Below are positions 1 through 61,397 of a stretch of 64,000 nucleotides of DNA, piece by piece. Below the pieces are notes generated by a model. That model saw nothing but the letters and a program-made list of their open reading frames with translations, did no database searches and was not told the DNA's origin. Position numbers and translations under genes: made by a program. The DNA lies in assembly GCA_963663405.2 (NCBI GenBank), contig CAXXSM010000088.1, positions 1 through 64,000 of the forward strand, written 5' to 3'. How positions within the stretch are numbered: position 1 is the first letter of the stretch; every line of letters starts with the position of its first letter. The DNA is from a bacterium (GTDB taxonomy: Bacteria > Hinthialibacterota > Hinthialibacteria > Hinthialibacterales > Hinthialibacteraceae).

Positions 1-3000
1 AATGATTCGCGTCCACTAACGGCCATTTTGAGAGAAGCGTATCATCTTTCGAAAATCCCTCAAAAGCCAGGACGGATTGATTAAACTGAAGGTCAAATGT
101 AATGGCTTTCGTCTCCGGCATATTCTCTACGCGAATGGGGATCATGAATGATGAGGCGCCATATCCATTGAACGTACCTCCACCTAAAATGAAATCCGTT
201 GTTGGCGGTTCGGTTGGAACCGGTGTCTTTGTCGGAATCTTTGTTGGAGTCGGCGTTGGAATATACGTCGGGGTTTCCGTGGGTACTATTGTCTTGGTTG
301 GACGTGGAGTTTTTGTCGGAATTTTCGTTGGAATTTCTGTGGGATCGGGCAGCGTGTTCTGCAAAAGTTTTACCCCCGATCGAATCTTAAATCGCGCGTT
401 AGTAGTATGCCGTTCCGCGTAGTAGATGTCCAATGTATTGTATTGATTGGTATTTAATCCCAGATCTTCTAGATTGATTCTTATTGTTTGTACGGGATGC
501 GCGCCCCCCAAATCAACCGCCAATAAGTTGTTTATGAAAACCCACATGTCATCATCCGATGAGACTTCTAACATAGCTGGTTGTGTATACTTAAATTTCG
601 CATGGAGTTCATAGGTAAAATGGAAATTATGATCGCGTTCCTGATTGCCGAATAACTCATCATCAATCGGGAAGAACTCATCCATCTCACATAAATAGAC
701 AGGATTCGCATTCGTAGAACTGGGATCAAGGTAAAAGTTTATGATATGCCGTTTTGAAAGGTTGATTCCATTCACATCGTTGAACCATTGATCAAAGTTC
801 TGTTTATTCGATACGGTTTGGTGTTCAATTAATGTGTTAAAAACGGGTTTCCCGTCATTCCCCAGTTGAAATTTGACGATTCCAGTTTCTGGATCGCTGC
901 CGGTGTAACTTTCAAAGTCCGCATGTGTGTCTTTGAAGTCGCGAATCGTTCCATAAATCCTTGAAACCGGTACCGGAACGGCCGTTGGTTCGAGAGTAGG
1001 CACAACTGTCGGGGTTTCCGTAGGCGTTTCCGTAGGGATGGGAGTGGGTGGTATTTGCTGCCCTTGCGCGTATATCGCATAGATTGTGACATTATCAAGC
1101 CCCCAGCTTTCATCCGCCAGACCTTGCATCCCTGATCCAGCGAAATTGATTACAATGGAATCGCCCTGGTGGGGAATCCGTTCTCCAAGCCGGTAGACCG
1201 AATCCATCGGCTCCTCATTAAAATAATACCCCAGTGTGTTATTCTCCGCGGCGTTCCAACGTCCAGGGAATTCACCTTCGGGATGGTTCCTTGGATATGC
1301 TTGTGGAAATTCATCGTGCTCTTCCTCGTGATATGAATTCACATACCGTCCATGATCGTTGCTGAATGTTGTATGAAGGACGCTATAGAGATCACTGGAA
1401 ACCGCTGTCGCAACCGTATCAGCCGCTACTCCACCTGGCACGTATAAATCCCATAAGTCCGGCCCTAAGCCTTCATAGGAATTATTCCCATCCAATGAAC
1501 GGATGGCGAAAAGATCGAAACAAACGAGTATATCCGTATGTTCCGGAAGATTGTTGAGTTTCAAACTAACAGTGTCGTTCCCAAACTGACCGAGAAACGC
1601 CCGGTCTCCTATTGGCGTGTGATCTACGGATTGATTCGACCATTCTGAACCGGCTCCGTCTTCAAAATCTTCACTATAAACCGATTCGGAGATCAATGGG
1701 CCTAAATATGGATCTTCAAAAAGACCCACGGCCATCGCTCCTGTCTCATTCGATGTCACCGCCACGCCTAGGTAGAGCGGATCCTCCATGGGAACGGAAT
1801 GAACGTAATGGATATTCTCTTCCCCCGACGGCTCGATCAACGTCACGATAAAACAATCGCCGACACGCCGCATACAGAGAGTCTGCTGGCGGTCAAAGAT
1901 CCGGCTGGCGCCCAGTTTTTCATCGTAATCCGCTTCCGCTCCATCTTTGTGGCGCCATTGCATGCCCAACGCTTGATCAAAACTTCGGATATTTGCGAAC
2001 ACGAACGCTGAAGACGGTTCGAGACTCTGACGGGCCATGATTCCCATTCGGGCTAATGGACTTGAGGTCGGATTGTCACCATACGGCATTACATAGGGTC
2101 TCTTGATTTCGATCTTGAAATCACCCCAGACAACTTTATAAATGAAATGACAATGATCGGCGGAATTTCCAATGTCTTGACCGCTTCCGATCACAGATAA
2201 TTGTGCGCCCACTATTGACGCGCCGCCTTCTGCGCCGGGTTTTCCGATATCGAGATGACCATCAAATCCGCCGATTCCTGGATACAGGGCGTTCAGCTGA
2301 TCATCTCCACGGATCACTTCGCTCTCGATTGCGCCTCCCCATTCCGCTACGCCATCAACGGTTCCCGGCGCAACAGCCGTGTAACTGATTTGCGTTGTTC
2401 CCGGCTCAAAGGACACTTCCCATAGGATTGAATTGCCCGAGATCAATCCCCCATTGCTGGTGTTTTTAGCCGTCCAACCATCTGGCAGAAGTTCCGCGAT
2501 TCTCCAGTTCTGTTTTTCATCGCTGGAATTGATTACATCGAGAGTCACTTGAATTTTATCATTTTTGTCGTAATAACTCTGTGAAAACGATCGTGACGCG
2601 ACGGGTGGAATCGAGGGTCCGGAACTTTGCGTCACAAGCCCTGTCTGGAATTTTAAAAACGATTCTGTGATATGCCTTTCCGCGAAAAACAGATCCAGTG
2701 GATAGGTTTCACCAATATCCAGCCCTAAGGCGCCCGTATTGATGATTTGCTCCGTCCGCCGGTGAACGCCACCCAAATCAACCACAAGATGGTTATTGAT
2801 AAAAACAAAAAGATCGTCGTCACTGATAAATATCAAATCCTGTGGGCCTTCATACGTGAATTCGGCATGCAGTTCATACGTGAAATGATAATTATGAATC
2901 CTCCCTTCATTGCCCCACAAAAGCCTATCGATAGGAAAAAAGGAATCGTTTTTAAATGTATAAACCGGTATGGAACTTGATGAAAGAAATCCGCGTTTTA

Positions 3001-3376
3001 AGACAATTTCAAATGGCGCCGATTGATTCACTCCATCCACATCTCGGAACCACTGCGCAAAACTCTCGACGCTTTCAATCGATGGAACACCCGAATCCGG
3101 ATTAAAAACCGGTTTCCCATCCTCATCCAATTCATCCAACACACTTCCCTGGTTCCAACCGGTGACATCTGATAGGATGTCATGCTCGAAGTCTGGATGC
3201 GAGGCCTGAAAATCCCGAATGACGCCACTCAGAACGATATCGGCTGGATATTTATCTGTCACCTTTGATGTATTTCTTCCTGCGGCGGGAAAAACAAACG
3301 ATCCAACGAGTAAAAAAATGGTTAGACTTTGGAGTAACACTTTGTTGTTGTCATAAAAATGACACTCTTTCATCAT
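1..3376 (-). CDS. Large secreted protein with two fibro-slime (PA14-like) domains, Pro/Thr linkers and a cohesin-like domain; several frameshifts; runs off the left edge
   Basis: Manual minus-strand translation: GGGAGG then ATG 3376 and a hydrophobic leader. Domain 1 has IRDFQASHPDFE and HNYHFTYELH..DDDLFVFINNHLVVDLGGVH..LDLFFAERH. Domain 2 has TIRDFKDTHADFE and FFPIDDELFGN..HNFHFTYELH..DDDMWVFINNLLAVDLGGAH..DIYYAERHT. A PT-rich linker lies at ~200-350, followed by IPIRVEN..ITFDLQFNNQSVLAF. Missing from the ORF track because of indels. Confidence 0.8.
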   Translation of the reverse strand, partial: MMKECHFYDNNKVLLQSLTIFLLVGSFVFPAAGRNTSKVTDKYPADIVLSGVIRDFQASHPDFEHDILSDVTGWNQGSVLDELDEDGKPVFNPDSGVPSIESVESFAQWFRDVDGVNQSAPFEIVLKRGFLSSSSIPVYTFKNDSFFPIDRLLWGNEGRIHNYHFTYELHAEFTYEGPQDLIFISDDDLFVFINNHLVVDLGGVHRRTEQIINTGALGLDIGETYPLDLFFAERHITESFLKFQTGLVTQSSGPSIPPVASRSFSQSYYDKNDKIQVTLDVINSSDEKQNWRIAELLPDGWTAKNTSNGGLISGNSILWEVSFEPGTTQISYTAVAPGTVDGVAEWGGAIESEVIRGDDQLNALYPGIGGFDGHLDIGKPGAEGGASIVGAQLSVIGSGQDIGNSADHCHFIYKVVWGDFKIEIKRPYVMPYGDNPTSSPLARMGIMARQSLEPSSAFVFANIRSFDQALGMQWRHKDGAEADYDEKLGASRIFDRQQTLCMRRVGDCFIVTLIEPSGEENIHYVHSVPMEDPLYLGVAVTSNETGAMAVGLFEDPYLGPLISESVYSEDFEDGAGSEWSNQSVDHTPIGDRAFLGQFGNDTVSLKLNNLPEHTDILVCFDLFAIRSLDGNNSYEGLGPDLWDLYVPGGVAADTVATAVSSDLYSVLHTTFSNDHGRYVNSYHEEEHDEFPQAYPRNHPEGEFPGRWNAAENNTLGYYFNEEPMDSVYRLGERIPHQGDSIVINFAGSGMQGLADESWGLDNVTIYAIYAQGQQIPPTPIPTETPTETPTVVPTLEPTAVPVPVSRIYGTIRDFKDTHADFESYTGSDPETGIVKFQLGNDGKPVFNTLIEHQTVSNKQNFDQWFNDVNGINLSKRHIINFYLDPSSTNANPVYLCEMDEFFPIDDELFGNQERDHNFHFTYELHAKFKYTQPAMLEVSSDDDMWVFINNLLAVDLGGAHPVQTIRINLEDLGLNTNQYNTLDIYYAERHTTNARFKIRSGVKLLQNTLPDPTEIPTKIPTKTPRPTKTIVPTETPTYIPTPTPTKIPTKTPVPTEPPTTDFILGGGTFNGYGASSFMIPIRVENMPETKAITFDLQFNQSVLAFEGFSKDDTLLSKWPLVDANH

Positions 3377-41263: not shown

Positions 41264-41857
41264 ATGTTATCTGATCAGGAAAAGAAACAAAGCGCGTTTA
41301 CGCTGATCGAGTTGTTGATTGTCGTGGCGATCATCGGCATTTTGGCGGCGATCGCCGTTCCAAACATGCTGAACGCGCAGATGAAAGCCCGCATCAGCCG
41401 CGTACACGCCGACCAGAAAGCCGTCAGCGACGCGTTGGAGATGTATTACATCGATTGGAATACATATGTGGAAGACCACGATTACCCTTCGGACACGTCA
41501 CAACGTGGATTATTCCGCTTGACCTCACCGATGGCGTATATGTCCTCCCTGCCCAGAGATCCATTCATCCCTTCCTACAAAGAGGGGAACGAGGAAGACA
41601 ATCCGACCTTTGAATTCGGTTCCGGCCACGCTACGCAATCCAAGCAATGGCCCGCGCAAGCGTATATTATCATATCACCCGGCCCGGATTTAGAAGAACA
41701 AGTCAGTGGAAACGACGGATTCCCCCGGAACGTAAAAATTTACCGCTATTCGATCACCAACGGAACCATGAGCAGTGGGGATATCGTCCGATTGGGAGGA
41801 AATTACAATTCCGGCGTCATTGTGATGGATGGTAAGTATTTCGTCGGTTCTCCATAA
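41264..41857 (+). CDS. Prepilin-type (GspG-like) protein, copy 3
   Basis: A|FTLIELLIVVAIIGILAAIAVPNMLNAQ; LTSPMAY..PRDPF; PGPD; TNGTMSSGDI. Confidence 0.88.
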   Translation: MLSDQEKKQSAFTLIELLIVVAIIGILAAIAVPNMLNAQMKARISRVHADQKAVSDALEMYYIDWNTYVEDHDYPSDTSQRGLFRLTSPMAYMSSLPRDPFIPSYKEGNEEDNPTFEFGSGHATQSKQWPAQAYIIISPGPDLEEQVSGNDGFPRNVKIYRYSITNGTMSSGDIVRLGGNYNSGVIVMDGKYFVGSP

Positions 41858-41883
41858 AGTATAAGCGTTTATATGATTTCAAT

Positions 41884-41928
41884 AGATGGTGGGCTGCAAT
41901 TTGTGTCAGCCCACCATCTTTTATTTTT
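41884..41928 (+). terminator. Rho-independent terminator
   Basis: AGATGGTGGGCTG/CAGCCCACCATCT 13-bp stem followed by a T-rich tract. Confidence 0.7.
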
Positions 41929-42011
41929 AGCTATTGATAAAAAAGAAAATGAATCGTATGATGTGAATAGATGTGGACATTCGATTAATAATGATGAAGG
42001 ATTGTATAGTC

Positions 42012-42158
42012 ATGTTAAAACAATTTACTTTAGAGTACTGGCTTGATGATGATTGGTATGTAGGACGATTAAAAGAAGTCCCCGGCGTATTTAGCCAAGG
42101 AGAAACTCTTGAGGAACTGGAAGAGAATATACTTTACGCAAATCAGATTACTTTGTAA
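42012..42158 (+). pseudogene. hicB: Truncated HicB-family antitoxin (48 aa)
   Basis: MLKQFTLEYWLDDDWYVGRLKEVPGVFSQGETLEELEENI, then diverges and stops. Confidence 0.75.
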
Positions 42159-42194
42159 TATATAGATAACCGTTTTTAATAAAGAGAGAATATC

Positions 42195-44408
42195 ATGGTA
42201 GATCCAGTAATGAGTATCGCTTCTGACACAGCAGTTGGGATTATCTCTGAATTATTCAAAAAAAGTCTCAGCACATTTAAAGACGCTAAAATATTGATTC
42301 GTAGTAAATATCAGAAAAGCAATTCAATTGGAATGAATGCTCGGAATTATGCAAATCAAATGGAAATACGATATAACTCTATGCGTATCTTCGGAATGAG
42401 CGAACCACGACCTTTGCGCAATATATACGTAAGAGTAAATATCCTGGAGAAAATCCGCGCGCGAATGAGAATTTCTATTGAAGAATTAGAAAAAGCCGTG
42501 GATTGCGACAGGCTAGGTTTTGGAAATGTGTTGGAAACCAAGGCTGGTTTGAATGTGATAGACGAGATTGAGAAAGTGATCGTTCTTGGGAAACCGGGAG
42601 CTGGTAAAACTACCTTTTTGAAATACATCGCTTTAATGGCGATGGATGGGAAACTGAAAAAAAACCGTATTCCCGTTTTTGTTGGTCTAAAAGAATGGTC
42701 GGATACGAAATTGGCTTTACTCGATTTTATAGTTGAACAGTTTGATATCTGTGGTTTTCCAGAAGCGAAACCTTATATCGAACATGTATTAAAACAAGGA
42801 AACTGCATTCTTCTTTTAGATGGTTTTGATGAAATAACGGTAGACCTTGATAAGGCGATTAAAGAAATTCTTGATTTTTCGGACAAATACAGTAAAAACC
42901 AATTTGTTCTCAGTTGTCGTATCGCCGCGTTTAATTATGTATTTGAAAAATTTACTGAAGTCGAGATGGCAGATTTTGATGACGAACAGATCGAAGCGTT
43001 TATTAAAAACTGGTTTGGGAAAGATATAAAGACAGCGCATGAGTGTTGGAAGAAAATGGAAGAAAATAAATTCATTAAGGAGATCGCGTCTATTCCCCTT
43101 TTACTCACTTTACTCTGTCTGGCATATGATGAAAATTTGGATTTTTCTTCGAATCGCGCAGAATTATATGGTGATGGGATTGACACTCTTCTTAAAAAAT
43201 GGGATAAATCGAGAAGAATCAAACGGCAGGAAATATACAAAAATCTCTTGCCTGATAGAAAAAAGAGTATGCTTGGAAAAATCGCTGCAAAGTCCTTTCA
43301 GGATAACCATTATTTTCTACCGAAGCGGACACTAGAAAATTATATCGCTGATTATATTCAACATCTTCCGGAAGCGAATATAGATTCCCTTCAATTGGAT
43401 AGCGAAGCCGAATTAAAAGCGATTGAAGCGCAACATGGTTTACTCGTAGAACGTGCAAAAGGTATCTATTCATTCTCCCATTTAACTTTTCAGGAATATT
43501 TTACTGCGTATTATATAGTTGAAAACAAAGAAAAAGGAAGTTTTGAGATTCTTGCGAATCATTTAAATGAAGATAAATGGAGAGAGGTTTTTCTTCTAAC
43601 AGTGGGTATGTTGCCCGAAGCGGATGACTTTCTTTTATACGTACGAAAGAAAATCCATGAATTCACAAATCAGAGAATCTCATTATTCCTTGATACTGCA
43701 ACTCAGTGTATAAAGGAAACATCCAATTACCCCCCTCATATTTGTAAAGTATTGTCAATCAATATTGTTCTTTTTATTGTCAACTCTCTTCATTTACCTT
43801 ATACCCATCGACGTGTTAATGATCGTGACCAAGCCTTTGATCTTGCTCATACGTGTGAACTTATCCTAAACCTTGATCGTAACTTTTCTAGTATTCATTC
43901 TAGTATTATTAATCGTTCTCATGTGCGTGCATTTGCTTTTGATCTTGCCAATGACCTAGATGTTAAGTTAAAAAATAATCAAATTGAAAAACTCGTTTTC
44001 GATTTTTTCTCTGATTTAAATAAAAAAGATATATCTTCTCTCTATCTCTACATACACAGTACTCATTTATTGGTGGAATGCCTTGATATAGGTTGTTATA
44101 TTTCGAAAGAGACTCGGCAAGAATTGTTGGATAGTCTTTTAACGGAAACTTGGAAAGAAAAGGGAGTTATGTATGACCTTGAAAAGAAAGTAAATTTAAT
44201 CTTCTTAAAACATTTTACTTTAGAGTATTGGATTGATGATAGTTGGTATATTGGACGATTGCTGGAAATTCCCGGAGTATTTAGCCAAGGAAAAACTCTG
44301 AATGAATTGGAAGATAACATAATAGACGCTTTTAATATGATGTATGAAGAAGAGGAATATACACCACAAAAAGATATTCACACTAAGAAACTAGGAGTCG
44401 CAGTGTGA
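42195..44408 (+). CDS. NACHT (STAND) NTPase with C-terminal in-frame HicB antitoxin domain
   Basis: Walker A GKPGAGKTT, Walker B LLLDGFDE, SCR, PLLL, FSHLTFQEYFTA, WREVFLL, NCH2-like LLVECL..CYIS..RQEL. The last ~68 aa are HicB (FTLEYW..WYIGRL.EIPGVFSQGKTLNELEDNIIDAF). Confidence 0.9.
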   Translation: MVDPVMSIASDTAVGIISELFKKSLSTFKDAKILIRSKYQKSNSIGMNARNYANQMEIRYNSMRIFGMSEPRPLRNIYVRVNILEKIRARMRISIEELEKAVDCDRLGFGNVLETKAGLNVIDEIEKVIVLGKPGAGKTTFLKYIALMAMDGKLKKNRIPVFVGLKEWSDTKLALLDFIVEQFDICGFPEAKPYIEHVLKQGNCILLLDGFDEITVDLDKAIKEILDFSDKYSKNQFVLSCRIAAFNYVFEKFTEVEMADFDDEQIEAFIKNWFGKDIKTAHECWKKMEENKFIKEIASIPLLLTLLCLAYDENLDFSSNRAELYGDGIDTLLKKWDKSRRIKRQEIYKNLLPDRKKSMLGKIAAKSFQDNHYFLPKRTLENYIADYIQHLPEANIDSLQLDSEAELKAIEAQHGLLVERAKGIYSFSHLTFQEYFTAYYIVENKEKGSFEILANHLNEDKWREVFLLTVGMLPEADDFLLYVRKKIHEFTNQRISLFLDTATQCIKETSNYPPHICKVLSINIVLFIVNSLHLPYTHRRVNDRDQAFDLAHTCELILNLDRNFSSIHSSIINRSHVRAFAFDLANDLDVKLKNNQIEKLVFDFFSDLNKKDISSLYLYIHSTHLLVECLDIGCYISKETRQELLDSLLTETWKEKGVMYDLEKKVNLIFLKHFTLEYWIDDSWYIGRLLEIPGVFSQGKTLNELEDNIIDAFNMMYEEEEYTPQKDIHTKKLGVAV

Positions 44409-44581
44409 AGCGAAAAGAATTTATTCGCGAATTGAATGCGGCTGGCTGTTATTTGAAACGTCATGGGAACCGACATGATATTTATGAAAATCCAAAAAAT
44501 GGGAATAAAGCCCCAGTGCCACGACACAATGAAATTAAAAATGATCTCTGTGATTTGATACGCAAGCAACTAAGAATTTAA
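44405..44581 (+). CDS. hicA: HicA-family mRNA interferase toxin (58 aa)
   Basis: GTG start overlaps the upstream stop (GTGA), SD AGGAG; MKRKEFIRELNAAGCYLKRHGNRHDIYENPKNGNKAPVPRHNEIKNDLCDLIRKQLRI. Below the ORF-track length cutoff. Confidence 0.9.
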   Translation: MKRKEFIRELNAAGCYLKRHGNRHDIYENPKNGNKAPVPRHNEIKNDLCDLIRKQLRI

Positions 44582-44602
44582 AGTTATACTTTTTTAATCT
44601 CC

Positions 44603-46201
44603 CTACCGATACACCCGATAATCAATCTCCTGAAAGATCGTATCTTTCCATTCAAGGCCGTTGAGGTAATCTTCGTCGATGGTGTTGGATTGTATTTGGC
44701 CATAGAGGGTGTTGAAGCGGTGGACGTGGTCGCGGGTGCGGCGGTTGGCGTAGGGGACGGCGGTGTTGGTGGTCATGATGAACGCCCAATCGCTGCTCTG
44801 GGCTAGAAGGAGTTCACGGGCGGCCTGGTTGAGGGCGCGTTTCTTTTTACCGCGCGCGTTTGGATTCGCTTCGGCGAGTTCGACCATGCGCGTTTCGCAT
44901 TCATGCAGGTGCCGGTAGATCCAATCGTTGCTGCCATTGAGCCAAACCTCGTAATACCCCTTGTCGCCCCAAGACGAGGGCGCGGGTTGGATTGACTGCA
45001 ACAATGGATGCGCCTTCAAATATTCGCTGGGTGTGATGGGACGGATCTCATCCTGATCCCACGCCATCTTGCGGAAGAGATATTCGATAAACATCGGCCC
45101 CTCAAACCACCAATGCCCAAACAACTCCGCGTCATACGGCGCGACGACGATCGGCGGACGATCAAGGAACTTGCGAAGATACTGGACCTGCTGCTGCCGG
45201 TTGAAAAGAAAATTCCCAGCGTGACTCGCCGCTTTCTCGCGGGCGGCTTCGGGATTGTATGGCTGTTTCTGGGATAGATCGATCCCGTTCCCCGTGATGC
45301 GGTGATACTTGAAACCAATGTTGCGGCGCACGCCATCGCCGTGCAGATAGGGTTTGATATAGTTATAAGGCGCGTCGTATCCCAGATCGCGGTAAAACTC
45401 GCGGTAATCGAAATCGCCTGGATACCCCGAATCGCGGCTCCAGACCTGTTTGGAGGATTCCATATCCCGCGCGAACGCGGCTACATTCGCCGGGGCTAAA
45501 ACCGGCGCGTAGACGCCATACTTGGGCCGGGGCGCGCCAAAGAGAATCCCATGCGAATCCATGAAGAAAAAGTCGATCCCCGCTTCGGAAAGGTAATCGT
45601 CTACTCCCAAATCGTACGCGCACTCCGCCAGCCAGATCCCGCGCGGCGGCCGTCCAAAGTGTTTTTGATAGTTGTTCTTGGCCACCATAATCTGCGCCCG
45701 GATCGCGTTCGGCGTCAGCATCAAGGGCAGAAATCCATGCGTGGCGCAGCAGGTGATGATTTCAAGAACGCCCTCGTCCTGAAAACGCTTGAACGCTTCG
45801 GTGAGATTACGATGATAAGTCTCCCGGAAGACGGAGAGAGAGCGCTGGATGATGTGTTGTTGCATCTTCGCGCTTTCATGAAACTCCGCGTGGGCTTTCT
45901 TAGAGGTGCGCTGGACTTCCTTCTCGGCCAACTCCGCGTATTTTTCGAGAATGCGCTCATACCGGTCCTGCAGCAACGGATCGGCCAGCATCTCCGAAAG
46001 CGTCGGCGTGACCGTCATGGTGACGCGGAAATTCGTGTTATCGTTGACCATGCGGTCAAACGCGTCCAAAAGTGGAATGTACGTTTCCGTCATGGCTTCG
46101 AACAGCCAGTCTTCCTCCAAGAACTCCTCATGTTCTGGATGGCGGATGAAAGGTAAATGGGCGTGAAGGACTAAGTTTAAATAGCCGGCCGGTTCGGACA
46201 T
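44603..46201 (-). CDS. GH57 1,4-alpha-glucan branching enzyme (DUF1957)
   Basis: LHAHLPF, ETYIPLL, GIWLAEC, PYDAELFGHWWFEG, LAQSSDWAF. Confidence 0.93.
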   Translation of the reverse strand: MSEPAGYLNLVLHAHLPFIRHPEHEEFLEEDWLFEAMTETYIPLLDAFDRMVNDNTNFRVTMTVTPTLSEMLADPLLQDRYERILEKYAELAEKEVQRTSKKAHAEFHESAKMQQHIIQRSLSVFRETYHRNLTEAFKRFQDEGVLEIITCCATHGFLPLMLTPNAIRAQIMVAKNNYQKHFGRPPRGIWLAECAYDLGVDDYLSEAGIDFFFMDSHGILFGAPRPKYGVYAPVLAPANVAAFARDMESSKQVWSRDSGYPGDFDYREFYRDLGYDAPYNYIKPYLHGDGVRRNIGFKYHRITGNGIDLSQKQPYNPEAAREKAASHAGNFLFNRQQQVQYLRKFLDRPPIVVAPYDAELFGHWWFEGPMFIEYLFRKMAWDQDEIRPITPSEYLKAHPLLQSIQPAPSSWGDKGYYEVWLNGSNDWIYRHLHECETRMVELAEANPNARGKKKRALNQAARELLLAQSSDWAFIMTTNTAVPYANRRTRDHVHRFNTLYGQIQSNTIDEDYLNGLEWKDTIFQEIDYRVYR

Positions 46202-53825: not shown

Positions 53826-54825
53826 CTAGGCGAGGTTTGGATTCTGCAATAATTTTTCAATTTTATGCGCCATTCTATTCTGTGAGCGAAGGTATAGATA
53901 GGAGCAGATACCGGTTTTGGCGAGTTTAAGTGAAAACGATTCCAAAACGGGGAAAATCTTAGGATAATCCTGAGATGTGTTATTGGCAAGAAAATTAATT
54001 CCTCCATCCACAAGGCGGATACCCGTGATCCGTGTTTTCTCCCATGTGCTGTCATCCAAACTGAAAAGAATATCGATCCAACAAGCGATTTCATTGTTTA
54101 AATTCTTGAGAGTGAGATCTTGTGGAACGATCATCGAATGGCCTTCCACGATATTGTTGAAATACTCTTGGAACGTATCCCCTTTCGAAAGAGTATACGC
54201 GGCGCCGATATTTCCAATGTGCGTATCGGTCGCGGGCCATAATCCCCTTATTGTATTTCGAAGCCAGCCAGAGGGCCAGCATGTTTTTCTTCCGTACCCG
54301 TTTCATGTTGTATTCAACAACGGGAAACAGTTCGATAATATCTTCCGGCGCGCGGTAATTCGGCTTGTCCTTCGCAGCGAACCAGAAAGGATGATTGTAG
54401 ACATAAGGAAGATTTTGATCTTGAAGATAGGCGATAAAGGTTTCGATATTTCGATCGGTTTGGGCGATGCGCTTCAATTCATTGAACTGGGATTTATCAA
54501 GTTGATAGACATTGATATGCAACGTATGTCCCACTCGAATGGGATCGTTGAAACTGATTTCGACTCCCGTAATCAGCCGTTCCCGTTCCCAACCTATGAT
54601 ATCATACGCTTTCATCGTATCATGATCGGTAATAGCGATATATCGAAATTCTTTTTTCTTCGCTTTTTGATAAATGGCTTCCGGGTGGAATTCAGGCGCG
54701 GGAAGAACGTCATTCGAACATGAGGAATGAACATGCAAATCGGCGGCTTGCCATCCTTCCTGGATCAAATTGTTGCCTCCTTCATGATCCAGCATCCGGT
54801 CTCGATATGTTTTCGGAAGGAACAT
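53826..54825 (-). CDS. PHP-domain metallophosphoesterase (frameshift near 54235)
   Basis: DLHVHS, AITDHD, GVEI, NHPF and, after the frameshift, TDTH. Confidence 0.8.
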
Positions 54826-55296
54826 AATCAGCCAGTCGTACTCCTTTTTGAGATTTGGTAACTCAAAAAATAAAATACCCTATACGTGTGATAATAAAGA
54901 AAAACTCGAAATCATATGGCGGCTCATGGCAACATAACCGATTACTATAAATGTAACCTTATTATTCAAGAGGAATTTGAACGATGAGTCAAGAAGTGGA
55001 TTCATTTATTTTTTGTTAGAACAACGAGTCAATAATCAAGATTGAATAAACCGAAAGCACTCAATAATTGTACCAATTAAATTCAATTTTTGAAGTTATA
55101 AATCTCATTTTATCTTGATTCCACAAAAATAATATCTCAACTCCATCTTCGATTTTTTTTTCGTGGGATATCGAGATAAACATAATTTTTTTGAATACGA
55201 TATTCCATCATCCGCGCTATAGCACTATGATTTAACTATCCGGCTTAAAATATTTGTTGTTATCCCATCGAAAATAAAGGATCATTTATCATCTTC

Positions 55297-55383
55297 TATG
55301 AAAATGAATTTCCGAGACGTTCTCGTTCAAGATTTCTATCGCAATTCATTTTCATTTGCTGGTTGTGATCTCAATCATGATAG
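55297..55383 (+). repeat. ~88-bp palindromic leader element, copy 3
   Basis: ATGAAAATGAATT...AATTCATTTTCAT perfect 13-bp stem, then TTGTGATCTCAATCATGAT. Confidence 0.8.
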
Positions 55384-55399
55384 TATATGAGGTAAACAG

Positions 55400-55665
55400 A
55401 TGAAATATGAATATGCGAGCGTCCGAATCACGAGTAAAGATAGCTATGAATTACCCATGTGGAGCAAAACGACCAAGATTCACGTAGTCACACCCGATCG
55501 ACATTTTTCGGGGATCGCTTGATAACGTCTATAATGAGATGAAAGTAGGGGGGCGAACCTTGTCTGGTTGGCATATTCAGTTATTTAGGATCACATGGAT
55601 GGCGATTATGCGAACTCAGCAAAACCGATATCTATTTTTTCGAGCGCTTGATCGAAGAAAATTGA
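55400..55665 (+). CDS. Small hypothetical protein, DUF4177-like (two apparent frameshifts)
   Basis: SD GAGGT; MKYEY...YLGSHGWRL...IYFFER pattern assembled by hand. Confidence 0.45.
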
Positions 55666-55812
55666 TGGTTATTCGATATTCCGAAGAAGGTGGATGAATT
55701 TACATGAATAAACCTGACGATATCTTCCCCCTTTCTCGTAAGGACCGTATACCATCACCTTTATTCATGAAATACAAAACTCTAAAATATTGAAAAAAGG
55801 AATTAGCGGGGG

Positions 55813-56016
55813 ATGAAACCTTCTTCCGTAGTACACTGCCCATCGTGTAATAAAATTCTAACGCAAGGCAAAGAAACACCCACATTTCCATTTTGCAGCA
55901 AACGCTGTAAATTGATTGATCTTGGCCGCTGGCTTTCAGGAGATTACCGCATCCGTGAACCGTTCCCGCGTAATGAGGATGATTATTGGGATGAAACCGG
56001 CGCTGAACCGGATTGA
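55813..56016 (+). CDS. yacG: DNA gyrase inhibitor YacG
   Basis: CPSC...FPFCSKRCKLIDLGRWLSGDYRI. Confidence 0.93.
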   Translation: MKPSSVVHCPSCNKILTQGKETPTFPFCSKRCKLIDLGRWLSGDYRIREPFPRNEDDYWDETGAEPD

Positions 56017-57530
56017 GTGGCTGGCCTGCGGCGCCTCTGGTCCTCTTGCTCGCTCTCTGTTTCCCCCCCTGGGAATGGGACGTTTCTCGTTTGGTTCGCT
56101 TTGGCGCCGATGGTTTTACGCATCCAGCCTGGGCGGCGCCGGTTGAATTTCTGGATTGGTTTTATCTGGGGAAGGAGTGTACCACCTCGCCTTGCTGCAC
56201 TGGCTGATTCACGTCTCCATCCCAGGCCTGATCGGTCTGTCTCTGTTGCTATTGGGCTCCTTTTACGGATTACTCCTCATTTTCATCGGCTGGATACGTG
56301 ACCGGCCCTATTGGATACCGGTGTCCGCGTTCGCGTGGGGCGTTGGTGGAATATGCGCGTTCGCTGGGCGTGTCTGTCCTTCTCGTGGGGGTATGCCGGT
56401 CATGCGTTTTATCAAATGGGAATCGCTTCTGCAAGGCGCCTATTGGATCGGGAGCGCCTGGATTGTCATTTCTCGCGGTGGGGATCAATTTCACCCTCAG
56501 TGAATGGATCGATGATACGGGTACCACCGCATCCGGAAAATGCCGCAGCCAACGTACCGTTTGAATATCCCTGTATCTCGCCTCGTACACCGCTTTCTTT
56601 CTCGTTTCCGTTCTTGCGGTCCATCATTTATGGATGCGCGTGTCATCGATTTCATGGAACGCGAAAAAGAGAACGCGCGGTCTTTCCGGGCCGCGTTGAT
56701 CCAAGGGAATTTCTCGCAAGACGCGAAAGAGAGCCTGCCGTCTGAATGAAGCGCTGACGGTGTATCTCGATCTTGTCCGCCGAAGCCATGAAGGAACGGC
56801 CGGACTTGATCGTCTGGCCCGGAGAGCGCCATTACCGCCTCGTTGAATTTCTGGCCATCCCTAGTGGAGAGGATCGTTGCGTTCGTGGAAATCCACCAGG
56901 TGGATCTGCTTGGCCGGCGCCGTCTACGGGGAATACCGTGGCGAGGGAGAAATGGCGATTATTACAATCGCGCTTTTCTTCTTCTCTCCCGGACAAGCGA
57001 AATCAATCTGACGGGGGATACGGTCGATCTTTCACAAGGTTCCTTTCGTACGACAAGATGCACCTGGTTCCCTATGGGGAATGGATCCCCTTGGAGATCG
57101 TACTGGCCTTTTTACTACATCGAAACCTTAATCGAGGAAGCGGGGGCGGGCATATTCCAACCGGGCGTGAGATCCCACCATCTTCGAAACGAACCACGGC
57201 GCCCGGTTCGCCGCCGCGACGTGCTTCGAATCGACGCTCGCCGCTCAATGGAGCGCCAAACAAAAATTGGGCGCTGATTTTTTTATTAATATCACCAACG
57301 ACGCCTGGTTTAAACGGTCGGCGGGATTGAAGCAGCATTTTCTCCACTGCGTCTTTCGAGCGGCGGAAAACCGGCGCTGGGTTCTTCGCGTAAGGCAACA
57401 CGGGACTCACCGGCGTCATCAATCCCACAGGGACGAATCATGGGCGTCCTGCCCGATAATGAAAGGACGTATGGGATCTACGAATCTGCGTCTCTGCAAA
57501 ATAAGGGGCGCGCGGGTATCTTGCCCGTGA
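55991..57530 (+). CDS. lnt: Apolipoprotein N-acyltransferase, heavily frameshifted
   Basis: Fragments LIQGN, PDLIVWP, YDKMHLVPYGEWIP, NITNDAWF..QHF..FRAAENRRW; ends approximate. Confidence 0.8.
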
Positions 57531-57558
57531 ACATGGGAATTGAAGGAATGAATCTACT

Positions 57559-59100
57559 ATGAGTAACGCGAATGGTTGGAATACGTTACTGGGCCGCGGG
57601 GCTGTGTCTCTGCCTATCACTGTTTCGCACTAATAACAAACGCGGGGGAACCGGCGATGGGACCGTTGATCGGTTCATCCCGAAAATCCCCGTTATTTCT
57701 CCGATCCTTCAGGCAAGGTTAGTCTATTTAACCGGTTCCCATACGTGGGCCTGCATCCAGGGAACGGGGGCATCGAAGGCGTGACGCCGGATTTTGAGTA
57801 TCCCAGCGTTTTTGGATTTCTTTACCCAGAGCGCAATCATAATTTCATACGGATGTGGACGTGGGAGCATGCCGCGTGGATGCAATTTCGTGACGCGGAT
57901 ACGCGAATTCGCTATACAAGCCAATCCCATCTATGCGCGGACCGGGCCGGGAACGGCGATTGACGGCGGCCCGCGATTATGATCTCACCCAATTCAATCC
58001 CGATTTCTTTACCCGGCTTCGCGAACGCATATCCGCCGCGCGGGAAAAAGGATTGTACGCCAGCGTCATGCTCTTTCAGGGATTCAGCATGTCGAACAAA
58101 AAGGAACGGCCGGCGTGGATCCCAAAAAAGGAAATCCTTGGGACGGCCATCCATACAATAGAAAAGAACAATGTCAACCGCGTATCAATGGCGATCGAAA
58201 CGGCAATGGGGAAGGCGAAGAGATACACACAATGTCCCATCCCGCGATTGACGAAACTGCAGGAACAATATGTCAAAAAGATGATTGACACGTTGAATGA
58301 TTTTGATAACATTCATTTGGGAAATCAGCAATGAAAGTCATGGGACAGTCGACGGAATGGCAGTATCATTTTATCCGCTTCATCAAAGACTATGAAAAGA
58401 CCAAACCATTTCAACACCCCGTTTGGATGACCTTTCAATATTCTAAATATACACCGGGAACCAACGCCGATCTATTCAACAGTCCGGCGGGAGGCGGTCT
58501 CGCCCAATGACGCAGGTGGTTATACATGGATGATCCACCCGCCGCGGACGGTTCGAAAGTCGTGATTCTCGACACCGATCATATCGATCCGCCGGATCAA
58601 GACAGATCAAACCAACGTGGATTTGGAAAGCCTTCACGCGGGGATTGAATCCGATTTTAATGGACTATCTATCAAGACGTTCGAAACTTTGGCTCCCCCA
58701 GCGAACCCCTCGCTGAGTTTGAGGCTTTCCGCCAAAGCGATGGGGCAGACGCGCTCGTTCGCCGAAGGCGATCGATTTGGCGAAAATGACGCCTCAAAAC
58801 GAGCTTGTGTTCCACTGGCTACTGCCTGGCGAATCCCGAAGAAGAATATCTGGCGTATCCAGCCGGCTTCGGAAAAATTGTTTTGGGTGGATTTACCCGC
58901 AGGGTTCGTACCGCGTGGATTTATACAGCCCTGAAAAAGGCGCGATTCAAACCTCCATTGGTCTGCAGAGCGCGGAACGCAAGAAAGCAGCTCATCCCGA
59001 TATTCTTTCTACGGCGCCGTCGTGGCCCATATCAAAAAAACCGATCCATCGTATGGGATCAATCACAACCAGGCGGATTTAAAAATCAGGAAATCCAGGG
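57559..59100 (+). CDS. Secreted glycoside-hydrolase-like TIM-barrel protein (DUF6298-like), heavily frameshifted
   Basis: NPRYF, VYLTGSHTW, HNFIRMWTWE, YDLTQFNPDFFTRLRERI, WEISNE fragments; end approximate. Confidence 0.55.
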
Positions 59101-59197
59101 TAGACAATACGGATTGTTGACTATGAGATAAATCGCCTGTGTAAGATTGGCTTCTCATTTCCAGATCAAAACAACTATTGTATAGCGGGGAGGGAAA

Positions 59198-59781
59198 ATG
59201 AACATGTATGTGGAAAAGGATTTACATCTGATCGAGCTGTTGATCGTCGTGGCGATTATTGGGATATTAGCATCGATTGCAGTACCGAATTTTCTCAATG
59301 CGCAGGCGCGCGCGAAAGTGACACGCACCGTCGCGGATCTGAAAGCGCTGCATTCGGGAATGGAGATGTACCGCCTAGACAATAACGTTTTTCCACCCGA
59401 TTATCGACAGTGGGAACGCGTGCCCGGCGTAACGATTCGAGATAACGAAATTCTTACCTACGTTCGCTTAACCACGCCGGTTTCGCATATATGAGTTCGA
59501 TTCCTCTCGATCCGTATTTTCTGGGCTCGGTGGGACGAATGGAGCACGTGAAAGAGATGCCCCTATTTCAATACGCCGGGCCGCCAGGTTCACTGGCAGA
59601 GACCGCGCTGGCGTAGCAACAAATACGCATTATACGATCACCAGTTTAGGGCCGGATAAAATCGATCAACAAATATGGGCGGTGGCGCTATCCCGACGCA
59701 GATTCACTACTTTATCAAATGTCGAACGGACTCACTTCGCTGGGAGATCTTTATCTTTCGAACCAAGGTTTGAAGTTTTAA
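59198..59781 (+). CDS. Prepilin-type (GspG-like) protein, copy 4 (frameshifted)
   Basis: LIELLIVVAIIGILASIAVPNFLNAQARAK; LTTPVSH..IPLDPY; SLGPD; YQMSNGLTSLGDL. Confidence 0.8.
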
Positions 59782-59929
59782 ACTATAGTAACCGCCGTAT
59801 ATATTTGGAGAAAGAACAGAAAATTCGTCATAAACTGATATGTCATAATCTACAGTAAGGAGATCTTTGAGTAATGCGGAAACCACTACTGATTCAACAT
59901 TATTAAATCCTCGTTGGCGAAAGATAGTT

Positions 59930-61397
59930 ATGTAGAATTCATTCCATTCTTTCTTTGTCTTGCGGCTCATGGGCGCCGTGGCGCAGGAGAGCGCGGTTTT
60001 GCACAATCCCCCTCTTCCCTGCCCTTCCAGATCAACGGTGTCTTTCCAGAGATGACCACCATCGCCGGTCAGCCGAGAATATGTCCGAAGCCGGCTTTCG
60101 GCGCCCTGCTACCCTGGGCGGACCGGTTATGGGCCGTTTCCTACGTTTCTCACATTCGCGGCTCCGGCACGGGCTTGTACGAAAATCGATGAGAACCATG
60201 CGGATGCGGCAGAACGTCCGGAGGAGTGTCGTAGGGACATACGCCAACCGGATGATTCACTATCCCTCCTCTCAGGGGATCATTGGTCCGCATATCATTG
60301 ACGCGGATGGGAACGTGCGAACGATCGAGGCCATTCAGGGGTATCGTCTTGACGGCGACAATCTGATCATCTCACCGATCCGGAAAACAAAGTCTATTTT
60401 CTCTCGATGGAAGGCCCCCCTTCTTTGAAGTGGACGTACATAGCTCTGGAAGCGAAGCGGCTCTTGCAATCTGGCCGAAGTATTGAGATCTGCCTGAAAG
60501 GAATGAATCCACATTTCAAAGGCGCGTATACCGCCAATGGCCGCGTAGTGGTTGCGAACAACAGCTACCACGAACAAGAACACCTAGGCGCTCGCGACGC
60601 AGGGAGGACGGCTGGCGGAATGGGATGGGAAGGAATGGACGATCCTGGAGCGGAAACCATTTCGTGGAGGTTTACGGGAAAGGCCCTCGTGGAGAACGAG
60701 TATGGGAATCCAATCTTCGCGCTGGGTTGGGACAAGGCTTCGGTGATCTTGAAATTATTCGCGGATGGGCCGAATGGAAGACCTACCGGCTTCCCAAAGG
60801 CAGTCATTCATTCGACCACGCCTGGAAACACGGAATGGTTCCGGATTCGAGAAGCGCAGACTGAACGCTTCCTGATGGACGCGCATGGGATTTATTATGA
60901 ACTGCCCGCGCAAGTCTATGAGGATAAAACCTGGGGGATCATCCCCATTTCCAACCATCTCCGGATCACGCCCGATTTCTGCCATTGGCGTGGATTGTTT
61001 GTCATGGCCTGCAACCAAACCGATCTCGCAGTGGGCCAGCCACAATCCGGCCTCTGGTTTGGGAATGTGGAAGATCTATGGCAATTTGGGAAAACCTAAA
61101 GGATGGGGAGGCCCCTGGTGGGAAGAAACCGTCCAAGCGGGAACCGTATCGGATCCATTCCTGATGACAGGTTTCGACAAAAAATGCGTTCATCTCAGCC
61201 ACGACTCGTCTCAAGAAGTGAAATTTACAATCGAAGTCGATTTCCTGGGTAATGGAACATGGAAAACGTACAAGGAAATCACCGTGCCTCCAAAAGGATA
61301 CACTCACCACGAATTCCCCACCAGTTTCAGCGCCCATTGGGTTCGCGTGACTGTCGATACGGGTTGTAAAGTGTCTGTTTACTTTGTTTATACTTGA
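59930..61397 (+). CDS. Secreted hypothetical protein, frameshifted
   Basis: Consecutive + strand fragments: INGVFP, PWADRLWAVSY, GTYANRMIH, EWFRIRE, GQPQSGLWFG, GWGGPW, SDPFLMTGFD. Confidence 0.6.

Follow-up and report, generated by a model that had tools for sequence, protein, structure and literature searches.

We analysed a window of 64,000 nucleotides (nt; the whole stretch covers positions 1 to 64,000 of contig CAXXSM010000088.1, from an uncultured bacterium of the Hinthialibacteraceae) and here describe a gene pair at 42195-44581, in which an NLR-like NACHT NTPase runs in frame into a HicB antitoxin domain and is followed by an overlapping gene for a HicA toxin. A sequence-only reading of the locus had reported one uninterrupted open reading frame (ORF) of 737 residues carrying a NACHT module and ending in a complete HicB, together with an intact 58-residue hicA that overlaps its stop, has a Shine-Dalgarno (SD) sequence of its own and keeps the conserved histidine. 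Both descriptions hold, the former by the agreement of coordinates, motifs and the Pfam assignments to NACHT and NCH2, the latter by that of the ORF, the AGGAG sequence, Pfam and His24. The pair is made up as follows.

42195-44408, + strand: ORF of the NACHT-NCH2-HicB fusion, 737 residues, no internal stop (ORF list, Pfam, alignment, model)
42195-42575, + strand: N-terminal region, residues 1-127, with three helices (4-25, 29-38 and 44-60) and no Pfam domain
42576-43022, + strand: NACHT NTPase domain, residues 128-276 (Pfam, 53.5 bits)
43968-44144, + strand: NCH2 (NACHT C-terminal helical domain 2), residues 592-650 (Pfam, 29.9 bits)
44145-44201, + strand: linker, residues 651-669, of which 659-669 are predicted to be disordered
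44169-44171, + strand: in-frame ATG (Met659) after AAGGGAG, a possible internal or ancestral hicB start
44202-44405, + strand: small complete HicB domain without a DNA-binding domain, residues 670-737 (alignment, AlphaFold 2 model)
44405-44581, + strand: hicA toxin gene, 58 residues, GTG start (Pfam HicA_toxin, E 4.8e-10)

The GTG of hicA overlaps the TGA of the fusion ORF as GTGA, and the AGGAG lies 7 nt upstream of hicA. Judged by their sequences, the NACHT, NCH2, HicB and HicA parts are all intact and belong to the families named.

The NACHT-NCH2 protein and its junction with HicB

The matches to NACHT and NCH2 both exceed their Pfam cut-offs, which are 26.7 and 27 bits, respectively. The Walker A motif GKPGAGKT occupies residues 132-139 and the Walker B motif LLLDGFDE includes D209, G210, D212 and E213; the signature residues of both are invariant across a 31-sequence NACHT alignment, and the available part of Kibby 2022 (bioRxiv 10.1101/2022.07.19.500537) gives D[GAS]hDE as the Walker B signature of STAND/NACHT proteins. 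The motifs IPLLLTLLC and FSHLTFQEYF are present as well. A protein search returned 7,482 relatives among 8,000 candidates scored, and the 119 listed besides the query are 41-55% identical to it. When aligned with 30 homologues the protein keeps all invariant columns (64/64) and is off consensus at 17 of the 171 columns that are conserved to at least 90%, which places it 4th of 31 in a leave-one-out ranking (range 3-23). The count is no outlier and the NACHT part thus shows no trace of decay, an idea that we therefore rejected.

The full-length AlphaFold 2 (AF2) model of the fusion reached a predicted local distance difference test score (pLDDT) of 74.9 and a predicted template modelling score (pTM) of 0.73, and is unreliable over the tail, where it has no alignment depth; a combined NACHT and HicB alignment pulled NACHT C-termini onto the tail and was therefore not used for folding. 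Foldseek placed NLRC4 (4kxf, E 3.7e-12) at the top of its matches, followed by NLRP3, NOD2 and NAIP, with 144 matches at E<=0.001. The predicted fold is thus the NBD-HD1-WHD-HD2 arrangement of animal NLRs.

The sequence-only reading had seen no effector domain in the first ~100 residues. This is borne out in so far as Pfam finds no domain there, but the region is conserved family-wide and is present behind the TIR domain in TIR-bearing relatives, e.g. P0048, and so belongs to the NACHT module instead of marking an empty effector slot. The short members of the family have no effector domain that can be recognised. PADLOC gave only a likeness to an NTPase core (PDC-S60, E 1.5e-15, residues 121-447 against profile positions 384-703 of 1027), the protein falls outside the NCBIfam family EruA (NF058535; 50.7 bits against a cut-off of 1000), and Pfam finds no EAD domain in it; HicB and HicA also differ in fold, and the sharing of one adaptor by both partners that characterises EAD-coupled STAND systems is not seen here.

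The other NACHT copies seen in the lineage are broken. On contig C100 of the same genome (30321-33399, - strand) lies a second NACHT homologue of 34% GC that is split over at least four ORFs (519, 104, 160 and 184 residues); by eye its N-terminus is TIR-like and its C-terminal part resembles domains of formylglycine-generating enzyme or sulfatase, and it appears to be a pseudogene. In the relative G012 the homologue L009 (G012:C79, 2484-4860, - strand), 58% identical over the core, is broken into three ORFs, has no equivalent of residues 489-612 and continues into a domain like a sulfatase-modifying factor.

All 30 of the aligned NACHT homologues (30/30) end 4-18 residues past the position of Ser647 in the query, i.e. 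at positions 650-664. The query reads past this family end as ...TETWKEKGVMYDLEKKVNLI and then as FLKHFTLEYW..., which is a complete HicB. Read from the alignment, HicB is joined in frame to the point at which NACHT proteins of this family naturally end, through a linker of ~11-19 residues that has no counterpart in the aligned HicB relatives. Phe670 (TTC, 44202-44204) stands in the column that holds ATG (42012-42014) in the paralogue upstream of the fusion and the start Met in 22 of 36 aligned HicB relatives. In each of the other two frames a stop follows within 25 nt of the junction (TGA at 44174-44176 and TAA at 44191-44193). That Phe replaces Met had been offered by the sequence-only reading as an argument for a true fusion. 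The loss of the canonical start is confirmed and is not explicable by an indel; as proof the argument falls short, since the ATG at 44169 could supply a free HicB.

A Logan contig of public run X1 (11,918 nt, depth 4.28) matches the region 41800-44700 over 2,901 nt with 0 differences and 0 gaps. It probably derives from the source sample and hence amounts to a second assembler, not to independent data; Logan contigs of runs X2 and X3 hold two short unrelated pieces of the stretch or nothing. ORFs of at least 200 residues, several or many of them longer than 800, cover 68% of the window, which argues against an assembly riddled with indels, and the run of A at the critical place of the junction is only four bases long.

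The HicB domain, HicA and their modelled complex

The HicB tail keeps all 11 invariant columns (11/11) of a 37-sequence alignment. Its AF2 model, with a pLDDT of 77.6, has strands at 18-23, 26-31 and 38-41 and a helix at 44-61; the last strand of the fold is not predicted, and residues 1-11 of the model, which are the linker, fall below a pLDDT of 50. A profile of the tail matches TTHA0281 (2dsy, E 4e-4) and, weakly, HicB (6g1c, E 0.17). HicA scores 39.8 bits against the HicA_toxin cut-off of 27, and its profile matches E. coli HicA (6hpb, E 0.0025). His24, within the motif HGNRHD, is invariant in 10 of 10 aligned sequences, and the nine other invariant columns are also kept. Against free-standing hicBA pairs the identities are 66-76% for HicA and 52-72% for the HicB tail.

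The 79-residue tail and HicA were then modelled together. The complex scored an ipSAE of 0.77 (0.77, 0.76 and 0.88 in the individual runs) against 0.01 for the best of three controls; the ipSAE mark used is reached by 58 of 80 solved complexes and by 2 of 110 mismatched pairs. At least 98% of the contacts are common to the runs, the partner pLDDT is at least 90, and the interface includes HicA His24. Since HicAB complexes have already been solved, the pass may reflect likeness to those rather than binding by this copy. With this caveat the model places the HicB tail over the catalytic His24 of HicA, and the proposal of the sequence-only reading that the NACHT protein holds HicA through its tail is thereby borne out at the level of a predicted complex.

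Further hicB and hicA copies were met in the course of this work. Contig C130 of the same genome carries at 113415-113803 (- strand) a canonical, free-standing class-2 hicBA pair with a HicB of 71 residues and a HicA of 58, a 4-nt overlap and a genome-like GC content of 48%; its HicA is 54% identical to that of the window, and the pair could cross-neutralise the latter. In a family-level relative, L010 (G012:C17, 2678-2881, - strand) is a solo hicB of 67 residues that has no hicA and adjoins a DJ-1/PfpI-like gene. It has 33% GC against 47% for its locus and is 73% identical to the hicB fragment of the window described below. It appears to be an orphan antitoxin. Two of 12 hicA copies near close HicB relatives (L092:643-816 and L104:3211-3378) contain an in-frame stop, which suggests toxin decay with retention of the antitoxin.

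Occurrence, neighbourhood and origin of the fusion

In order to place the architecture, searches were made from the NACHT side, from the HicB side and among genomic and viral sequences. None of the 119 NACHT homologues listed carries a HicB tail, and their coverage of the query is at most 90%; precomputed Pfam annotation is a weak test for such tails, as it misses the tail even in the query. Residues 655-737, searched among proteins of 405-1290 residues, found only the query itself among 24 candidates. The 68-residue HicB domain, searched among proteins of 120-2000 residues, found the query and 14 proteins of 125-253 residues; the eight of these that were fetched comprise five upstream run-ons with the canonical Met, two hicB-hicA frame joins and one protein with an N-terminal HicB, and none of the eight contains a STAND domain. 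Five proteins, P0271-P0275 (139-153 residues, one of them named as Candidatus Poribacteria), show a recurrent form with an N-terminal helical extension of ~70 residues in frame with a HicB that keeps its own Met, and represent either a real enlarged HicB or a small upstream gene that has no stop. With HMMER against 1.84 billion representatives, the best 150 of 807 HicB matches were all of 58-119 residues and none was fused.

The genomic survey took in the best 80 of 479 confirmed NACHT loci. Fifty of the 80 align to residue 642 or beyond, and from there the ORF runs on for 0-23 codons in 49 of them and for 106 in L018; a HicB tail was found in none of the 80. Conversely, in 15 metagenomic loci with a HicB 52-72% identical to the tail, 12 of which have a hicA (66-75% identical), hicB is never joined to NACHT, and no NACHT lies upstream in any of the 15, 11 of which have at least 1 kb of upstream sequence. 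Fifty-five distant NACHT loci on viral contigs have neither hicA nor hicB, and a HicB-profile scan of viral contigs found no relative. The word-based searches among these are blind to divergent HicB tails. Thus the fused form, for which the sequence-only reading had proposed to look in other genomes, was absent from all the NACHT, HicB, genomic and viral sets searched, an outcome that this reading had itself named as speaking against its proposal, and the PADLOC comparison it had likewise proposed produced only generic NACHT-level matches. Identity to the nearest match is 55% for NACHT, 72% for HicB over part of its length (65% over the full length) and 76% for HicA. The lineage is therefore barely sampled, and a fusion common to its close members would go unseen.

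Sixty-nine of the NACHT loci have at least 250 nt of 3′ flank, with 109 co-oriented ORFs downstream. A co-oriented hicA lies directly downstream in one of them, L055, where an 810-residue NACHT and NCH2 protein (NCH2 E 4e-38; stop at 2611) is followed by a HicB/UPF0150-like ORF (2642-2914) and an overlapping HicA (2907-3131, E 4e-17). The two bear only a distant relationship to their counterparts in the window and so represent an independent juxtaposition in the same order, unfused, in a state like that of a precursor of the fusion. Among the 80 loci, L022 has a convergent hicA-like ORF 46 nt past the NACHT stop. One hicA downstream of NACHT in 69 loci is not clearly an excess over chance in genomes rich in toxin-antitoxin (TA) modules. 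TA-like pairs of other kinds were seen immediately downstream of, and co-oriented with, cyanobacterial NACHT genes: an antitoxin with PIN (L084:2544-3175), an RHH-like protein with Fic/Doc (L085:4720-5348) and an antitoxin with HNH (L072:4666-5408).

The exceptional ORF of L018 (17-2221, from a Saprospiraceae MAG, i.e. metagenome-assembled genome) is a NACHT homologue with a C-terminal EAD11 (E 1.7e-12, residues 647-721), showing that the family can carry an adaptor at this end. No partner effector is visible on its short contig, and a further homologue, P0114, has a weak N-terminal EAD11 match. In the accessible text of Kaur 2020 (PMC7159879), EADs are proposed to be fused to either terminus of core NTPases and to serve as adaptors through which effectors are recruited in trans.

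The surroundings of the gene pair bear on how it arose, and contain the following features.

41870-44600, no strand: AT-rich islet holding the whole locus; sliding GC 0.31-0.41 inside and 0.45-0.58 outside
41881-41922, + strand: inverted repeat with a T-run at the left islet edge; arms of 16 nt, 94% complementary, loop of 10 nt
41934-41962, + strand: sigma-70-like site TTGATA-17-TATGAT, 10/12, the best of the region, 50 nt upstream of the hicB fragment
42007-42139, + strand: 133-nt direct repeat, left copy, spanning -5 to +128 as counted from the hicB start; copies 80% identical
42012-42158, + strand: truncated hicB paralogue of 48 residues (Pfam UPF0150, E 7.9e-6, 26.1 bits)
44197-44329, + strand: right copy of the direct repeat, in which the start-codon position reads TTC

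The islet measures ~2.7 kb and its parts have 32-37% GC, against 50-55% in the flanking genes and 46.9% in the genome. It is bordered on the left by a prepilin-type gene ending at 41857 and on the right by a convergent GH57-like gene ending at 44603. The inverted repeat is probably the terminator of the upstream gene. The sigma-70-like site is by its consensus match a candidate promoter of the whole operon, in a region whose 10 such sites are no excess over shuffled sequence (10.6). As the best of these sites precedes the hicB fragment, the operon may run from the old hicB promoter. The fragment is homologous to HicB over its first 41-45 codons, then diverges and stops, with no hicA behind it. 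An Rfam scan of the window found no family. Thirty related genomes were compared, none of the same genus, 18 of the same family and the others of the same order or class only; among them the GH57 gene alone is conserved in synteny and no empty site is definable. In the reading preferred below, the locus is a small, horizontally acquired defence or addiction islet.

The direct repeats bracket 42140-44196, which is exactly the NACHT ORF without its stop and a leader of 55 nt. Comparison of the copies across 41 codons gives a nonsynonymous divergence (dN) of 0.16, a synonymous divergence (dS) of 0.59 and a ratio omega of 0.27, whereas synonymous sites are saturated against four other hicB genes, one of them of low GC. 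The copies are therefore each other's closest relatives and have diverged mostly under purifying selection. These comparisons suggest that a NACHT ORF was inserted into a hicBA operon. An alternative in which an incoming cassette cut a resident hicB is weakened, as the fragment is as AT-rich as the islet and closest to the tail itself. Two scenarios would lead to the present arrangement. NACHT may have entered, or recombined with, a hicBA operon such that the 5′ end of hicB was duplicated on each side; since a cell without HicB is killed by HicA, survival would be limited to in-frame products in which a full HicB is restored. Alternatively, NACHT may have lain between two paralogous hicBA modules, with a deletion taking the 3′ end of the first hicB and its hicA and a separate event removing the NACHT stop. 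A neutral ORF of 669 codons and such composition would stay open with P ~2e-13 at d=0.3 and 0.008 at d=0.05. If the hicB duplication dates the fusion, the ORF would have been under selection for long; that the duplication and the fusion are linked in age is an assumption.

Further out in the window, 54825-60400 contains no ORF of at least 200 residues, overlapping ORFs of 90-185 residues in several frames and, as its sole Pfam match, a weak apiosidase-like one; decayed genes are possible there. The 5′ end of the prepilin-type gene (41264-41400, with an N-terminal FTLIELLIVVAIIGILA motif) recurs in dozens of copies of 75-90% nucleotide identity spread over the same genome and the relatives searched, suggesting a very large pseudopilin-like family.

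Interpretation and relation to known systems

The reading that we prefer, and to which we give an even chance, is that the fusion is real and lineage-specific and that its tail acts as the antitoxin, so that HicA rides on an NLR-like protein. An intact NACHT-NCH2 STAND NTPase of the short type is followed by a short flexible linker and the complete antitoxin domain of a class-2 hicBA, with hicA translationally coupled to the end of the ORF. The fused tail, as the only complete cognate HicB of the locus, would neutralise the HicA RNase by covering His24, and one HicA would dock at the C-terminal, sensor-side end of each NLR-like protomer. HicA would then be freed as in an ordinary type II TA module, once the protein that bears the antitoxin is no longer supplied or is broken down, as might happen upon host shut-off during infection or loss of the islet, and the NACHT part would keep the sensing and oligomerising role of its family, whatever that is.

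Several observations weigh against this reading. The architecture was found nowhere else, so that the searches give no indication of selection for the fusion itself. The tail scores below the Pfam UPF0150 cut-off of 27.3 (16.7 bits in the whole protein and 21.0 alone), and the free-standing members of the same HicB clade that were scanned (L010, L091) also fall under it, at 25.6-26.8 bits. Met659 with its SD-like AAGGGAG could start a free HicB of 79 residues, in which case the fused tail would not be the acting antitoxin. A single-nucleotide indel within 44154-44174 would bring into frame the stop at 44174-44176, overlapping the ATG at 44169, and separate the two genes. The sequence itself is supported by one contig at depth 4.28, probably of the source sample. 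The other hicBA pair of the genome (C130) and a hicB-like ORF (C82) might cross-neutralise HicA, and the dS estimate draws on only 41 codons.

A rival explanation is a neutral accident without coupling, in which a recent deletion of one or a few nucleotides removed the NACHT stop, a free 79-residue HicB from Met659 does the work and the fusion is a tolerated by-product. The in-frame ATG at 44169 stands 2 nt after AAGGGAG. With one extra base in 44154-44174 the NACHT protein would end in ...WKEKGSYV, within the tail lengths of its homologues, and the shifted frame, ATGTATGA, would form a classical stop-start overlap that is plausible as the ancestral state. The fusion is a singleton, and the 14 database proteins of 125-253 residues show that upstream frames do run into hicB. 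However, the five run-ons among the eight proteins fetched that are not hicB-hicA joins keep the canonical HicB Met where this protein has Phe, and an 11-residue N-terminal extension as would start at Met659 is found in no HicB relative. Furthermore, the SD-like match is no better than at several internal positions among the 40 in-frame start-type codons, its spacing of 2 nt is short, and the NACHT part shows no decay. We regard this explanation as unlikely. An error of assembly or consensus, with NACHT and hicB in truth separate overlapping genes, would require just one indel, and a MAG that is 82% complete in 170 contigs, the low depth of the matching contig and the splitting of the paralogous NACHT on C100 into several ORFs all leave room for it; but the second assembler agrees without a gap, the critical A-run has four bases only, long ORFs are intact across the window and no indel would explain the lost canonical ATG of hicB. 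Such an error is improbable.

A bolder version of the fusion is the one put forward by the sequence-only reading, namely a sensor-gated TA defence in which NACHT would hold HicA through its tail and, on sensing a phage cue, change nucleotide state or form oligomers and let go of HicA, an abortive-infection effector supplied in trans. All three parts are intact, the tail is modelled onto His24 (0.77 against 0.01, with the caveat about solved complexes), short family members have no recognisable effector domain, the EAD11 of L018 shows a C-terminal adaptor to be tolerated and L055 has the same gene order unfused; and if a dS of 0.59 dates the fusion, the chance of ~2e-13 for a stop-free neutral ORF at d=0.3 would speak for long-term selection. 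That dating is assumed, however, and the fusion is seen once only, with a co-oriented downstream hicA in just 1 of 69 loci, a convergent one in one more of 80 and none among 55 viral loci. Moreover, in Kibby 2022, as far as its available text goes, the C-terminus of STAND proteins is the sensor side and effectors are N-terminal, and nothing hints that a NACHT module can dislodge a tight antitoxin-toxin pair. Gated release is thus possible but unsupported, and we hold it to be somewhat less likely still than the accident. We would say the same of its evolutionary form, an old selected fusion that looks like a singleton only because no close relative has been sequenced, in which the HicB tail is a heterotypic adaptor parking HicA on a bacterial NLR and activation or destruction of NACHT frees HicA and aborts the infection. 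A role as a new phage-defence design is unproven. The relation may also be reversed, with the tail serving NACHT. In one form HicA addiction polices the 2.2-kb ORF, since an upstream nonsense or frameshift mutation would abolish HicB and kill the cell; in the other the HicB/HicA pair is a C-terminal sensor or decoy of the NLR. The fused copy is intact where the other copies seen in the lineage are broken (C100 in the same genome, L009 in G012), and the tail sits at the C-terminal position that the available text on STAND proteins assigns to the sensor. Against this, there is a single case (n=1), and an internal start at Met659 would defeat the policing, so that this idea appears the most improbable of those considered here.

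The protein resembles the bNACHT proteins of Kibby et al. (bioRxiv 10.1101/2022.07.19.500537), as far as these are described in the available part of that paper, in its central NACHT with a D[GAS]hDE Walker B and C-terminal NCH domains, in having relatives with an N-terminal TIR, in its short repeat-free C-terminal region and in its location on a low-GC islet. It differs in its C-terminal antitoxin domain, which does not figure in the available part of that paper's domain list, and in having no recognisable N-terminal effector. On the TA side, Gerdes 2024 (mBio, PMC10865869) sorts the contexts of HicA into 14 classes, of which class 14 is SMC-HicA, and in the retrievable text of that paper the terms NACHT, STAND and NTPase each occur 0 times. 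By the same text the locus is like a class 2 hicBA in its small HicB (68 residues) without a DNA-binding domain, its gene order with hicB first, its HicA of 58 residues and its stop-start overlap. It is unlike class 2, where hicB is a gene of its own of 63-103 codons, in that HicB is here the last 68 codons of a 737-codon ORF, which places it outside the class, and in that a truncated second hicB lies upstream in the window. Classes 7 and 8, as described there, share with it a HicB fold at the C-terminal end of an enlarged protein whose gene immediately precedes and overlaps hicA, class 8 being a published precedent for such an arrangement; these are conserved classes with HicBs of 216-356 residues and DUF1902 or lysyl-tRNA-synthetase-like domains, whereas the part added here is a 650-residue STAND NTPase in a single case.

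As in the EAD systems set out in the accessible text of PMC7159879, the core NTPase would carry at one of its ends, N- or C-terminal, a small adaptor on which a separately encoded effector docks. EADs are homotypic, with the same domain on both partners, whereas HicB and HicA form a heterotypic pair of inhibitor and enzyme, so that docking and inhibition would be one contact. CapRelSJ46, as summarised in part in PMC10865869, likewise holds its antitoxin covalently within a larger defence polypeptide, where it could double as a sensor; it is a single chain whose antitoxin domain binds a phage capsid protein, whereas in the present locus toxin and antitoxin are on different chains and the antitoxin is attached to a NACHT. 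A 2026 Nature survey of prokaryotic STANDs makes, in its available portion, no mention of antitoxins or HicA.

Full-text literature searches found no NACHT-HicB protein and no HicA together with 'STAND NTPase', and the statement of the sequence-only reading that it knew of no described NACHT-HicB/HicA system therefore stands within the literature so searched. Plant NLRs with integrated domains offer an analogy, and only that: they too have taken in a domain from a different pathway and hold it elsewhere than at the effector position. Nothing indicates that the HicB tail is a target mimic.

Bacterial NLR-like proteins and TA modules are both recognised in anti-phage immunity and have been treated as separate devices. 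The joining of an NLR to an antitoxin with a coupled toxin would open the question of whether the many short NACHT proteins with no visible effector can borrow one, and of what liberates a type II toxin during infection. More generally, it illustrates the 'capture' of a gene by a TA operon: once a gene has been inserted into the antitoxin, cells survive only if the frame is kept and the antitoxin made whole again. If the fusion is old and selected, it would represent a new wiring of the STAND switch to an effector in trans, in which addiction also shields the receptor gene from decay. If it is a one-off accident, it would still be a clean natural construct with which to learn whether HicB functions when loaded at its N-terminus.

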